Sequence record: MW233709
DNA length: 64,000 nucleotides
Source of the DNA: Escherichia phage UPEC01
Reading direction: 5' to 3' (one strand)
The translations under genes were made by a program, and so were the position numbers. The notes below the pieces were generated by a model. That model was not told the DNA's origin, ran no database searches, and saw only the letters and a program-made list of their open reading frames with translations. Shown here piece after piece: positions 21,137-58,231 of this stretch; the first letter of the stretch is position 1; every line of letters starts with the position of its first letter.

Positions 21137-22696
21137 TTAAATTCCTTTAACATATACGCGGCGGAAGTAACCGTTCAAGCCGAGGCTGTTAACGATGTCC
21201 GGCATGCCGTTTTGAATACGCTTGGTCGGAGCCTGAGCTGTCGGGTCAGCGAACGGGTTAATACCGATACCGTAACGGGTTTTGAAGCCCATAACCGGCT
21301 GGAAGTTTTTCGGGTCAGAGCCACGCAGCGGAGTCAGTGCAACATATGGTGCATAGTAGATACCAGCATCCATTTCGTTAGCGCCTTTGTAACCGATGGT
21401 GAAGTAGTCTGCACGAGCATACTGGTCGATATAGACACGGTATTTGCCACCCAGAACACCAGCGAACACAGCTTTAGTGGTGTCAACGTTGAAACCTTTA
21501 CCCAGACCCTGAGCAGCATAAGATACGGAGGTATCAACTGCAGCCAGTACGTTAACTACGTTACGGGAAGCGATGATGAAGTTACCTGCACCACGGCCAG
21601 TCTGACGAGCGATTTCAGCAGCTTCTTTGTCAATCTGGAACAGTAAAGCTTTGAAGCTTTCACCAGCCCAACGAGCACCACGGATATCAATCGGGTCCTG
21701 GAAGTCAAACACACCAGCTTTAGCGCCAACGGTGTTGGTCATACCAGATTTACCAACCTGAGCGGAGTAGTTAATCCAATCGATAACTTCGCGGTTGATT
21801 TCCAGCATAATTTCGGTAGCCAGAATACCACTCAATTCAGCATCAGCATCCATACCGTGGACAGCGCGGAGGTCCTGCGCCAGTTCGATAGAGTAGCTTG
21901 CTTTAAGCTGACGGGATTTAGCTTCGATAACTTGTTTGTCGATGCGGAAGCCCATTTCGTTCCACGGGTTATCAGTAGAACCGTTAAAGCCTTCCTGCAA
22001 TTCGGCGATAGAGGTAGCCATACCTTCAGCGATTTCTGCCAGCTTACCAGCTTCGAGCAGTTTGGTAACTTCAGCGTCAAGTTTAGCAGCATCAGTAGCG
22101 GCGGCATCGACGGTTACAGCTTCAACAGCCTGGTAGTGCGCAGAACCGGTTGCTTCGAAGAAGTGTGAATAAATTTTACCAACGGTAAGAACTTTGCTTG
22201 CAGCCAGAGCTTCGAAAGCTTCAGCAGCGCCCTGACCAGAGAACATAGCGTTCGGAGCATACATCGGGTGGAAAGCTTCTTTAGCACCAGCAGCTACAGG
22301 GTCTTTACCGTAAACTGCACGCAGGGCAAATACCTGGCCAGTCGGGTTGTTCAGAGGCTGTACGCCACAAATATCAAACGCAATCAGATGCGGGATAGCA
22401 CGACGAACCATACCCATAACTGCCGGCCCAATCTGAGTTACTGCGCCAGAGGTCTGGCCAGCAGCGATATTGGTAGCATCATAACCATGGTCACCACCGA
22501 TTTCAGCTTCGGTCAGGAAAGAACCAAATGCTTCGGAGATTTTTTCGTCACGGTATTCAGGAGCGGTCAGAATATCTTGTTCCTGGTTTTCAAAGATTTT
22601 AGCGATGATAGCTTGTTTAGAAGCACCAACGATTTCCGGAAGAGCTTCGTTTTCCAGCAGAGCGGACCATTTTTGAACTAATGCATTCTTTTTCAT
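21137..22696 (-). CDS. 23: major capsid protein gp23
   Basis: 519 aa; very close to T4 gp23 throughout (e.g. SKQAIIAKIFENQE, IAAGQTSGAVTQIGPAVMGMVRRAIP, C-terminal FRRVYVKGI). Confidence 0.97.
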   Translation of the reverse strand: MKKNALVQKWSALLENEALPEIVGASKQAIIAKIFENQEQDILTAPEYRDEKISEAFGSFLTEAEIGGDHGYDATNIAAGQTSGAVTQIGPAVMGMVRRAIPHLIAFDICGVQPLNNPTGQVFALRAVYGKDPVAAGAKEAFHPMYAPNAMFSGQGAAEAFEALAASKVLTVGKIYSHFFEATGSAHYQAVEAVTVDAAATDAAKLDAEVTKLLEAGKLAEIAEGMATSIAELQEGFNGSTDNPWNEMGFRIDKQVIEAKSRQLKASYSIELAQDLRAVHGMDADAELSGILATEIMLEINREVIDWINYSAQVGKSGMTNTVGAKAGVFDFQDPIDIRGARWAGESFKALLFQIDKEAAEIARQTGRGAGNFIIASRNVVNVLAAVDTSVSYAAQGLGKGFNVDTTKAVFAGVLGGKYRVYIDQYARADYFTIGYKGANEMDAGIYYAPYVALTPLRGSDPKNFQPVMGFKTRYGIGINPFADPTAQAPTKRIQNGMPDIVNSLGLNGYFRRVYVKGI

Positions 22697-56566: not shown

Positions 56567-56640
56567 GGCCCTGTAGCTCAATTGGTTAGAGCATCCGGCT
56601 CATAACTGGCAGGTTTCCGGTTCAAGTCCGGATGGGGCCA
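56567..56640 (+). tRNA. tRNA with CAU anticodon (Met or lysidine-type Ile)
   Basis: Cloverleaf by hand: acceptor GGCCCTG/TGGGGCC, D-arm GCTC-AATTGGTTA-GAGC, anticodon loop CTCATAA (one U-C mismatch in stem), T-arm TCCGG-TTCAAGT-CCGGA; T4 itself carries a CAU tRNA-Ile. Confidence 0.8.
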
Positions 56641-56642
56641 CC

Positions 56643-56719
56643 CGGGGTGTAGCTCAATTGTATAGAGCAACGGTCTTCTAAACCGTAGGTTGTGGGTTAG
56701 AATCCCACCACCCCGACCA
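56643..56719 (+). tRNA. tRNA-Arg (anticodon UCU), CCA encoded
   Basis: Acceptor CGGGGTG/CACCCCG, D-arm GCTC...GAGC, anticodon stem ACGGT/ACCGT with loop CTTCTAA, T-arm GTGGG-TTAGAAT-CCCAC, then A-CCA; T4 encodes tRNA-Arg(UCU). Confidence 0.85.
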
Positions 56720-56734
56720 ATTACTGAGGATATT

Positions 56735-56974
56735 ATGGTTATTAGTGAATCATATGCAGTTATGGATATAACCAGCAACGAGCTGGTTTATAGCTTTGAT
56801 GAGTTTGACGAAAATGATAAACAAGTCCCATGGTTTGCATTAACTGCTCCACCTGAACATAATAAATATCTAAGTTTCCCGACTCGCAGACTAGCAACAA
56901 ATTTTATGGAATTCAATGACCTTGATTCCAATTATAAGGTTGTTAAAGTCAAATTAGCTATTACAATTGAATGA
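56735..56974 (+). CDS. hypothetical protein
   Basis: 79 aa from ATG 56735 (GAGGA RBS); the longer track ORF (56690) would overlap tRNA-Arg. Confidence 0.45.
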   Translation: MVISESYAVMDITSNELVYSFDEFDENDKQVPWFALTAPPEHNKYLSFPTRRLATNFMEFNDLDSNYKVVKVKLAITIE

Positions 56975-57164
56975 GAAGCCGGGTCGCTACCGGTAAGTCG
57001 TCGGGGCCTGTTCCCTGGGGTATTGTTCCTCCCACAGTTTTCTGTGTTCTGGTTCTTTACTATCACATCAGGCACGGCGCACCTTTTACGGAGTTTTTCC
57101 AGAGCGGGCGGTGCGCCCGGTAGTATGAGAAATCCGAGCGGATGGTGCATCCGGTACTATGGAA
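56975..57164 (+). ncRNA. candidate small stable structured RNA (cf. T4 species 1/2 RNAs next to the tRNA genes); speculative
   Basis: About 190-nt non-coding, unusually GC-rich segment directly after the tRNAs, with several stable stems (e.g. GGCGCACC...GGTGCGCC, CGGATG-gtg-CATCCG). Confidence 0.25.
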
Positions 57165-57172
57165 TATAAATA
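57165..57172 (+). promoter_or_regulatory. late promoter TATAAATA (leader-bearing ORF 57204)
   Basis: Octamer 31 nt upstream of ATG 57204. Confidence 0.6.
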
Positions 57173-57203
57173 TTAACAACAACCCTAATAATGGAAAAAC
57201 AAA

Positions 57204-57587
57204 ATGCTTACATATGCAGAATTTTTAAATCGCAATACCATCACCGAATCCGTACTGACTGAAGCTGGCAAATTTTCTTTAGTGGCTCCAGAAAAAGCCG
57301 GCGTTTCAATTGGTGACCGTGTTATGTTCAAGAAACCAGTTAATGGCGTTTCTTGGGGTATCGTAACTGGGTTTGGTATCAAAGCTAAAGATGTTAAAAA
57401 CGCCGCCGCGCCAGGTGCTAAACTAGCCGGTTCCAAAGTTTCAACTTATATGGTTCGTCCTAAACAGTCTCCAGGTAATGGTGCCGCTGACTGGGTTGGT
57501 GCTCCAATCGAAATCGCTCGTGATAAATTCTTGAACATCACTGACCGTGCCAACGAACGCGCTGCAATGGCATTCGCTCGCGGATAA
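57204..57587 (+). CDS. internal-protein-like late gene (leader-like MLTYAEFLNRNTITE)
   Basis: 127 aa; N-terminus resembles the capsid-targeting leader with an ITE motif; late promoter TATAAATA 31 nt upstream; terminator downstream. Confidence 0.55.
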   Translation: MLTYAEFLNRNTITESVLTEAGKFSLVAPEKAGVSIGDRVMFKKPVNGVSWGIVTGFGIKAKDVKNAAAPGAKLAGSKVSTYMVRPKQSPGNGAADWVGAPIEIARDKFLNITDRANERAAMAFARG

Positions 57588-57623
57588 GAACACTTGCCTT
57601 GCAGGTGGAACCCCGACAAGGTA

Positions 57624-57652
57624 TAGCCCCTTCCGAAAGGTTGGGGCTTTTT
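57624..57652 (+). terminator. rho-independent terminator after ORF 57204
   Basis: GCCCCttCCgaaaGGttGGGGC followed by T6. Confidence 0.7.
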
Positions 57653-57676
57653 TATAAATCAACTAAAGAGAAACGT

Positions 57677-58231
57677 ATGAAACTGTTAAAATATTTGAGT
57701 TGGATTCTGTTAGTTCCGCTGGATTTTATCTCCATGATTCTGGCCGTTATCCTGGCTCCATTTGTAGTTCCGTTCCATAATAAAAAGACTGGTAAACTTC
57801 CGTTCGGGTTTGATTGGATGATGACTTATGATAATCCGATTGATGGTGACCGTGGTCATATCAAACGTTGGTCAAAAATCCGAAAATGGCCATTAGGTGT
57901 TTACTTCCAACGAGTAGCCTGGCTCTGGCGAAACAAAGCATACAATTTTGCTTACCACAAGCTCGGTCGTGATTGCAATTCAGAATTCCATTATAAAGGT
58001 AATCCTGATGTTGAATCTGGTTCCCCAGATAAAGCTCATCATGGATGGCTCTTTATGTGGACGGACAATGCCTGGGGTGTTTTTGCTTCTGTTCCTTATC
58101 TTAAGGTCGGTGGAATCACCTTTTATCTGCGTGTTTATTGTGGCTGGAAGCTCAAGAGCCTTCTGTCCCGACCCATCCCTAAGGCTATGCTCGCCTTTCA
58201 TATAAATCCGTTCCGCTTTTATAAGAACTAA
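57677..58231 (+). CDS. hypothetical membrane-anchored protein
   Basis: 184 aa from ATG 57677; N-terminal hydrophobic helix LLKYLSWILLVPLDFISMILAVILAPFVVPF; terminator downstream. Confidence 0.5.
   Translation: MKLLKYLSWILLVPLDFISMILAVILAPFVVPFHNKKTGKLPFGFDWMMTYDNPIDGDRGHIKRWSKIRKWPLGVYFQRVAWLWRNKAYNFAYHKLGRDCNSEFHYKGNPDVESGSPDKAHHGWLFMWTDNAWGVFASVPYLKVGGITFYLRVYCGWKLKSLLSRPIPKAMLAFHINPFRFYKN

Follow-up and report, generated by a model that had tools for sequence, protein, structure and literature searches.

A probable tRNA and small-RNA unit in Escherichia phage UPEC01, with an rnaD ortholog followed by a late-gene cassette in the rnaC slot

By following up an earlier note on 64,000 nucleotides (nt) of Escherichia phage UPEC01 (sequence record MW233709; this whole stretch is called the window below), we found that the region beginning at position 56567, which a model had described from the letters as two transfer RNAs (tRNAs) followed by a GC-rich non-coding segment, is probably a tRNA and small-RNA unit of a Gaprivervirus-type T4-like coliphage. 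Transcribed from left to right, this unit would comprise an Ile2 and an Arg tRNA, an ortholog of the T4 small-RNA gene rnaD, and a late-gene cassette that occupies the rnaC slot and carries a candidate occlusion leader. The biology of T4 is the proper frame for the locus because its relatives are T4-like phages of Escherichia coli: over ~1.5 kilobases (kb) around it, Escherichia virus TH41 is 99.8% identical to the window, and other Gapriverviruses (VR20, TH44, EAWsc9 and others) are 91-97% identical. The parts of the unit are as follows.

56567-56642, + strand: tRNA(CAU), probably of the Ile2 type, found by ARAGORN and by Rfam RF00005 (62.2 bits at 56567-56640)
56643-56719, + strand: tRNA-Arg(UCU), which reads AGA and has its CCA encoded, found by ARAGORN and by Rfam RF00005 (73.7 bits at 56643-56716)
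56735-56974, + strand: orf79, an open reading frame (ORF) of 79 amino acids (aa) taken from the ORF list, a conserved small phage gene (phrog_33509, E = 5e-57)
56971-57083, + strand: rnaD (species 2 RNA) ortholog, allele A, 113 nt, by homology to T2L and T4 rnaD
57084-57164, + strand: 81-nt module with two hairpins, not rnaC
57165-57172, + strand: T4-type late promoter TATAAATA, an exact match to the consensus
57204-57587, + strand: orf127, 127 aa with its ATG at 57204, the cargo of the cassette
57588-57655, + strand: conserved 35-nt element (ACACUUGCCUUGCAGGUGGAACCCCGACAAGG) and intrinsic terminator (GCCCCUUCC-GAAA-GGUUGGGGC-U6), from alignment with the post-rnaC sequence of T4 and T2L

When positions 56960-57175 were compared by BLAST with 50,697 phage records, 415 records matched. 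Window positions 56974-57083 are 88.4% identical to the T2L feature annotated ‘rnaD: species II RNA’ (E = 3e-30), and T4 rnaD (NC_000866 71053-71171) aligns with the window from its first to its last base. The gene order, all on the + strand, is tRNA-Arg, orf79 and rnaD, identical to that of T2L; in the T4 reference, rnaD starts one base after tRNA-Arg and rnaC comes next, so that an ORF stands between tRNA-Arg and rnaD in the window and in T2L but not in T4. The first four bases of the window rnaD take in the TGA stop of orf79 (56972-56974), which thus overlaps the T4-equivalent 5' end, and T2L rnaD likewise overlaps the end of trna.2 by 4 nt. Judged by its sequence, 56971-57083 is the ortholog of T4 and T2 rnaD, although the gene is unannotated in every Gaprivervirus record that we inspected. 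The earlier note had suggested that the GC-rich segment may correspond to the small stable RNAs found with the tRNA cluster of T4, and this stands for its first 113 nt (56971-57083), an rnaD homolog located downstream of tRNA-Arg, but fails for the remaining 81 nt (57084-57164), which are unrelated to rnaD or rnaC and form a separate cassette with the downstream late gene.

The window rnaD resembles those of T4 and T2 in its position within the tRNA cluster downstream of tRNA-Arg(UCU), its strand and its predicted scaffold of three helices (P1, P2 and P3), and there is hardly any difference between them in the ~45 nt at the 5' end and the ~20 nt at the 3' end (ending ...ACGGCGCACC). With 113 nt it is somewhat shorter than the genes of T2L (116 nt) and T4 (119 nt). 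Its central domain is the T2L allele (91% identical), whereas it differs from both reference genes in having no rnaC after it and in a P3 helix strengthened (GCCUG/CAGGC) through clustered substitutions. RNA C and RNA D are produced in T4 infection, with roles that are unknown (PMC3014915; PMC9697503). By homology with T4, the window rnaD would be cut from the transcript of the tRNA cluster and would accumulate as a stable RNA.

The fold and its variation were studied in 29 distinct rnaD homologs from annotated phages, viral contigs and metagenomes, of which 28 were used for covariation; nine hits from short-pattern scans of viral contigs (L036-L044) were unrelated chance matches and were discarded. 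The 29 homologs hardly differ in the 45 nt at the 5' end or the 20 nt at the 3' end, the scaffold sequence being near-invariant across genera, and the same plan of P1, P2, P3 and apical hairpins is predicted for the window and most of the variants. The helices of the window rnaD are the following.

56978-56982 with 56990-56994, + strand: P1, 5 base pairs (bp) with the 7-nt loop GUCGCUA
56997-57003 with 57075-57079 and 57081-57082, + strand: P2, GUCGUCG with CGGCG-C-AC
57006-57010 with 57069-57073, + strand: P3, a short helix enclosing the apical hairpins

A covariance comparison with related phages, which the earlier note had proposed as a check, found covariation in P3 and in the apical helix. 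One P3 pair over the 28 sequences is A-U in 12, U-A in 11 and U-U in 5, and clustered substitutions on both strands of P3 build the contiguous 5-bp GCCUG/CAGGC in the window. Within the subset of 16 sequences that carry the allele called B below, 98.5% of the cells pair and four pairs have changed on both sides; the covariation score of this subset was reached by none of 500 shuffles, and slid controls pair in 31-48% of cells. Both invariant and variable G-U pairs, which would be A-C mismatches on the opposite strand, indicate that rnaD acts as an RNA of the + strand.

Some observations weigh against this account of rnaD. P1 and P2 are paired in 28 of 28 sequences without any variation, and they are therefore conserved yet not proven by covariation. 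Folding energies gave no support alone, since z-scores of the minimum free energy (MFE) across the tested segments ranged from an unremarkable -0.04 to -1.5; the 190 nt of 56975-57164 gave z = -1.10 on the + strand and -0.04 on the - strand relative to dinucleotide shuffles. Because these values lie within the shuffled range, the evidence for structure is the covariation and not the energy, and of the stable stems that the earlier note had described in this segment, the stems themselves are present while the stability of the whole 190 nt does not exceed that of the shuffles. The stability and processing of the window RNA are taken from T4 alone, and its 5' end does not lie next to a tRNA as in T4 but overlaps an ORF stop as in T2L. 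Rfam had no family that matches 56971-57164, even at E up to 10, a blank that is uninformative because T4's own rnaC and rnaD score nothing above threshold.

While the ends of rnaD hardly change, its central 46-54 nt fall into three allele classes with the following members.

Allele A: T2L, the window, TH44, EAWsc9
Allele B: T4, VR20, TH54, TH55, TH40
Allele C: SP18, P479

In forced global alignments, identity between central domains is 75-96% for members of one class and 46-60% for members of different classes, the latter being near the level of unrelated sequences under such alignment. All three alleles occur inside Gaprivervirus beside near-identical flanks, and two of them are common to Tequatrovirus (T4, T2L). 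This pattern implies recombination or balancing selection at rnaD, and suggests diversifying or balancing selection on RNA D itself. We regard the allelic structure of rnaD as the most interesting by-product of the analysis.

The cassette downstream of rnaD occupies a well-defined slot. No rnaC was found in the 64-kb window (best blastn E = 0.99), and the module is not a diverged rnaC either, as the two align poorly after ...GGCGCACC and blastn gave no match. In SP18 and P479 the order is orf79, rnaD, rnaC, a conserved 35-nt element and a terminator, with the same junctions as in the window, where the same element and terminator lie at 57588-57655 but after the 127-aa ORF. The post-rnaC sequence of T4 and T2L aligns with this 3' end of the window unit at 81% mean column identity with an invariant core. 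As SP18 and P479 have the same junctions and T4 and T2 the same 3' end, rnaC has been exactly replaced by the module, the late promoter and orf127. Other phages show a third architecture in which rnaD is directly followed by the terminator, so that phages with rnaD but without rnaC exist and RNA D and RNA C are not an obligate pair; the rnaD-rnaC pairing of T4 and T2 is absent from the window and is not universal in the family. Thus the cassette is like T4 rnaC in filling the same slot, from the rnaD 3' end to the conserved element and terminator, and unlike it in that the module has no sequence similarity to rnaC and no tRNA-like 3' domain, and in that the slot holds a protein-coding late gene. 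The T4 architecture of the tRNA region here has a variant specific to this lineage, with a constrained leader and a late gene exchanged for rnaC.

Several further observations concern the 3' end of the unit. The 35-nt element ACACTTGCCTTGCAGGTGGAACCCCGACAAGG is almost invariant in the window, T4 and T2L and closes the unit after rnaC, rnaD or orf127; perhaps it serves as a signal for 3' processing. The terminator scan had overlooked the terminator because of the two U-U mismatches in its stem. At 57653-57660, overlapping the terminator U-run and upstream of the DUF7338 gene (57677-58231), lies TATAAATC, one base off the late-promoter consensus, and a perfect TATAAATA stands at this place in those relatives whose rnaD is directly followed by the terminator.

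The late promoter that the earlier note had placed at the end of the GC-rich segment was confirmed as TATAAATA at 57165-57172; this motif has six sites on the + strand of the window, and the one at 57165 is invariant in nine of nine distinct variants of the cassette. Copies of the module, 93-100% identical, were found in only 15 phage records, from 14 distinct genomes, and a tblastn search with orf127 returned the same 15 records and no others, so that module, late promoter and orf127 are one cassette. Among 11 genomes, 40 of the 42 variable nucleotide sites of orf127 are synonymous, an excess that marks it as a real protein-coding gene under purifying selection. It forms one cluster among 5.8 billion proteins and has no Pfam, PHROG, PADLOC, NCBIfam or PDB match; its AlphaFold model was unusable (predicted local distance difference test, pLDDT, 36). 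A scan for related loci returned VR20 alone. An exhaustive HMMER search gave three distant matches, and no hairpin module was found in the contexts of these three relatives; apart from them, orf127 is confined to this lineage. A remote homolog (47% identity, 202 aa) was seen at 1501-2109 of an unrelated T4-like metagenomic contig (L047), just downstream of a tRNA-Gly(UCC) (1241-1315), a structured spacer and a terminator. Proteins of the orf127 family may tend to be encoded at the end of tRNA clusters.

The module itself, when examined by comparison among the genomes that carry it, has the following parts.

57090-57093, + strand: GGAG within a U-rich linker
57105-57119, + strand: hairpin 1, CGGGCG-GUG-CGCCCG
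57139-57153, + strand: hairpin 2, CGGAUG-GUG-CAUCCG
57102-57127 and 57136-57161, + strand: 26-nt direct repeat with 34-nt spacing, in which the hairpins are embedded

The repeat motif has these two sites only in the window, against 0.01 expected. Of the distinct variants, four have G-C and five A-U at pair 57108:57116 of hairpin 1, and seven have A-U and two G-U at pair 57142:57150 of hairpin 2, the G-U change fitting a + strand RNA rather than a DNA palindrome. Only 8 of the 81 module columns vary, compared with 33 of 72 fourfold-degenerate sites of orf127 in the same genomes (Fisher p = 5e-7). The module is therefore a constrained + strand RNA element under purifying selection. It does not consist of intrinsic terminators, as neither hairpin has a U-run after it on either strand, and an origin as a repetitive extragenic palindromic (REP)-like or host-derived sequence was also rejected, with no match in 5,426 E. 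coli genomes and no further copy in the window.

Among the explanations for this constraint, the likeliest is that the module hides the ribosome site of orf127 in read-through transcripts, ahead of a small RNA of its own, of DNA operators and of a partner resembling those of type III toxin-antitoxin systems. Even so, we hold it tentatively, as a model that is more apt to prove wrong than right. It centres on two predicted arms that flank the late promoter at 57165-57172.

57093-57101, + strand: left arm GUUUUUCCA of a 9-bp long-range helix, a perfect inverted repeat that pairs with 57192-57200
57192-57200, + strand: right arm UGGAAAAAC, over the presumed Shine-Dalgarno sequence (GGA), 4 nt upstream of the orf127 ATG

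In a model of the read-through transcript (57085-57235) the long-range helix is part of the MFE structure and encloses both hairpins, and the leader of the late-promoter transcript is essentially unstructured (-4.2 kcal/mol). A complement of at least 9 bp to the ribosome-site region arose in 18 of 5000 dinucleotide shuffles of the module, and the duplex of leader and module has a predicted energy of -17.7 kcal/mol versus -9.3 +/- 2.4 for shuffled leaders. The T4 genes e, soc, 49 and I-TevI offer a precedent, in which an upstream arm hides the ribosome site and late transcripts lack the arm (PMC3014915). With no terminator between rnaD and the cassette, read-through transcripts of the tRNA and rnaD genes would carry the upstream arm of orf127, and this arm (GUUUUUCCA, or alternatively the orf79 3' end) would pair with the ribosome-binding region and silence the gene, while transcripts from the late promoter, without the arm, would remain open to translation. 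In this model the two hairpins make the 90-nt loop more compact; they may in addition mark or shield the processing site on the 3' side of RNA D. Occlusion would make sense because no terminator separates the tRNA and rnaD unit from the inserted late gene. The window shares with the T4 cases an upstream complement to the ribosome-binding region and a late promoter downstream of the arm, and departs from them in that its arms are 90 nt apart and bridged by two hairpins instead of forming a compact local hairpin, and in that a local helix competes.

Several points speak against occlusion. The left arm (57093-57101) can pair locally with 57127-57132 in the competing helix CGGAGUUUUUC/GAGAAAUCCG. 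Although the long-range helix has a predicted probability of at least 0.74 in five of nine distinct variants, in the other four (TH54, P8, TH55 and L035) this falls to 0.04-0.2 and the local helix wins. Both arms are near-invariant, with one C to U change that keeps a G-U pair, so that there is no covariation either way. Two other late-gene leaders of the window reach similar duplex energies with their own upstream sequence, and the long-range helix was identified post hoc. The U-run of the module, pairing either locally or with the ribosome site of the late gene, may constitute an RNA switch.

When a longer stretch is folded, the ribosome site of orf127 has the 3' end of orf79 as its partner in place of the left arm. 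An imperfect inverted repeat joins 56926-56946, at the 3' end of orf79, to 57173-57196, in the orf127 leader and Shine-Dalgarno region. It consists of 19 nt at 79% complementarity and an 8-nt perfect match, brackets rnaD, the module and the late promoter, and is present in the MFE structure of 56900-57235.

The competing local helix is also the basis of the best of the other explanations, according to which the module (~57089-57155) is a small stable RNA released from the RNA D precursor, a functional replacement of RNA C in which the closing helix CGGAGUUUUUC/GAGAAAUCCG surrounds hairpin 1 and is followed by hairpin 2. This local fold is the MFE structure when the module is folded in isolation, four of nine distinct variants have it too, the module sits exactly in the rnaC slot under purifying selection, and the covariation of hairpin 1 and the G-U change of hairpin 2 fit a + strand RNA here too. 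We nevertheless consider a separate small RNA unlikely, given that the module is never seen without orf127 and its late promoter, has neither promoter nor terminator of its own, shows no similarity to rnaC or to any Rfam family, and has a z-score of only -1.46.

It is much less likely again that the hairpins act as DNA, as two operator-like palindromes 34 bp apart through which a dimeric phage or host protein modulates the late promoter. They are perfect 6+3+6 palindromes centred ~17 and ~51 bp upstream of TATAAATA, and the G-C to A-T double change preserves palindromic symmetry as well as pairing, but where TH44 and TH40 have G for A at 57142, the RNA still pairs (G-U) and the symmetry of the DNA is broken, and the motif is found nowhere else in the 64-kb window. 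No upstream operators are known for T4-type late promoters. A pairing of module RNA and orf127 protein resembling a type III toxin-antitoxin locus would accord with the two 34-nt units repeated in tandem just ahead of a lineage-restricted gene and with their strict co-occurrence, yet it is hardly credible when orf127 is unlike ToxN, CptN and TenpN and has no PADLOC, Pfam or NCBIfam match, a late promoter and not a terminator lies between repeats and gene, there are only two repeats, which diverge outside the hairpin, and the remote orf127 homologs have no such repeats.

The two tRNAs at the head of the unit are the only ones that ARAGORN found in the 64-kb window, as tRNA(cat) and tRNA-Arg(tct), and both are also accepted by Rfam RF00005 (gathering score 29), in agreement with the earlier note. 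The 2 nt that the note had counted between them are correct on the Rfam boundaries; these bases are the encoded CC of the first tRNA, whose 3' end reads ...A-CC with the terminal A not encoded. Whether this CAU tRNA is Met or Ile2 had been left open, and the sequence evidence favours the Ile2 (lysidine) type. Its acceptor stem (GGCCCUG/UGGGGCC) provides C4:G69 and C5:G68, and the pairs 4:69 and 5:68 are the major identity elements for TilS, the lysidine synthetase of E. coli (PMC11947777). The chromosomal CAU tRNA-Ile of E. coli (GGCCCCU...AGGGGCC) has both of the same pairs, and the 5' acceptor strand GGCCCUG is identical to that of T4 tRNA-Ile(CAU). Matches to the window tRNA were found in 5,251 of 5,426 E. 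coli genomes, and all 22 of the matches listed (sampled from best to weakest in a ranking of 5,827 records) are annotated tRNA-Ile, none of these 22 being annotated tRNA-Met; the E. coli tRNAs annotated tRNA-Ile are 76-83% identical to it. The EAWsc9 ortholog is labelled ‘tRNA-Ile2 (cat)’. The CAU anticodon, C4:G69 and C5:G68 are thus shared with T4 tRNA-Ile and with E. coli tRNA-Ile2 (ileX/ileY type); unlike both, the window tRNA encodes CC only and not the full CCA, and its D, anticodon and T arms have diverged from those of T4. A point on the other side is that the lysidine modification itself is not visible in sequence.

The alternative, an elongator tRNA-Met, is improbable. ARAGORN gives a Met label, which it assigns by anticodon only, and the CAU tRNAs of VR20, SP18, MN01 and T2L are annotated tRNA-Met, but this is contradicted by the two acceptor pairs, the T4-identical 5' acceptor strand, the tRNA-Ile annotation of the E. 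coli matches and the EAWsc9 label. Host TilS would turn the tRNA(CAU) into the lysidine form that reads AUA. The tRNA-Arg has kept the anticodon of T4 and T2L while its sequence has diverged (74% mean column identity in the three-way alignment). In 52 long ORFs of the window, AUA makes up 14% of the Ile codons and AGA 16% of the Arg codons. AUA and AGA are both rare in E. coli, and the tRNA pair therefore fits the classical T4 pattern of supplementing codons that are rare in the host. An Rfam match to ‘Plastid-ycf2 5'UTR’ at 56567-56641 on the - strand was rejected as an artefact, with 42.3 bits below the gathering score of 65.7 and a model that resembles an antisense tRNA; the tRNA-Gly of the metagenomic contig L047 gives the same antisense artefact.

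The GC-rich segment of the earlier note (56975-57164) has 55.8% G+C, compared with a window mean of 41.0% (standard deviation 4.3% in 190-nt windows), a value that 0.02% of 190-nt windows reach, so that its description as markedly GC-rich holds. The only other 190-nt window of equal G+C, near 21151, lies inside a 519-aa ORF and was dropped. The orf127 region (57204-57587) is also above average, at ~45-53% G+C in 150-nt windows versus the 41% mean. The local GC-richness therefore belongs partly to the whole cassette, and the raised G+C of the orf127 region may reflect a foreign origin. The segment was also said to contain no ORF, and this is borne out in the sense that the ORFs overlapping it (50 and 48 aa on the + strand and 72 aa on the - strand) are short, non-conserved and disrupted by allele replacements and indels among the relatives. 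GenBank records of Yersinia phage vB_YenM_P8 and of phage pEC-M719-6WT.2 nevertheless place ‘hypothetical proteins’ on the minus strand over rnaD and the module. These ORFs have the following coordinates.

Locus L021, 1141-1299, - strand: minus-strand ORF annotated in GenBank
Locus L023, 1045-1299, - strand: minus-strand ORF annotated in GenBank
Window, 56932-57150, - strand: the equivalent ORF

Their lengths differ between rnaD alleles, and they are probably false gene calls.

We give almost no credence to a reading of the whole 190 nt as a single novel structured RNA gene: the high G+C continues without break over the segment and its MFE structure pairs the rnaD 5' end with the hairpin 2 region, but the rnaD-containing query matches 415 records and the module 15, in natural genomes the rnaD alleles and the module recombine independently, the z-score is only -1.1, and rnaD homology stops at 57083. 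With the last 81 nt belonging elsewhere, the segment is not one RNA gene. Two complementarities were seen between the parts: the rnaD 3' end at 57076-57083 (GGCGCACC) is perfectly complementary to 57110-57117 in the 3' half of hairpin 1 (GGTGCGCC), and folding the 190 nt together pairs the rnaD P1 region with that of hairpin 2. Both could be due to chance or reflect alternative structures in the precursor.

Upstream of rnaD, the short ORF that the earlier note had placed after the tRNAs is orf79 (56735-56974, 79 aa, phrog_33509), and its counterparts in VR20, SP18 and P479 are annotated as hypothetical proteins. A sigma-70-like sequence TTGTTA-N16-TACAAT (9 of 12 positions) was noticed at 56940-56967, from which a transcript start would fall at ~56974, the first conserved base of rnaD. 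A promoter of its own for rnaD was rejected, as the scan total of five sites is no excess over the 4.6 found in shuffles.

Both tRNAs and rnaD belong to T4-type families that are already known, and nothing here is a new kind of system. For annotation, the results mean that Gapriverviruses carry an unannotated rnaD, over which some GenBank records put spurious minus-strand ORFs, and that a CAU tRNA is often mislabelled Met. Some fifty years after RNA C and RNA D came to be known in T4, their function has still not been found (PMC3014915, PMC9697503); an invariant scaffold with swappable apical alleles provides a comparative handle on the function of RNA D. A single rnaD single-nucleotide polymorphism (SNP) has been reported to arise convergently during the adaptation of a T4-like phage to a semi-permissive host (PMC12685909), with which the idea of RNA D as a host-interaction RNA would fit. 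Two further readings, that RNA D is such a host-interaction RNA with an invariant scaffold and an exchangeable apical domain and that the 81-nt module is a new cis-regulatory RNA switch, are speculative and unlikely to be true. The switch would let a late gene sit inside an early or middle tRNA transcription unit without a terminator, and the cassette that replaces rnaC may be a small case of a T4-like phage insulating a late gene, newly acquired, within an early unit.

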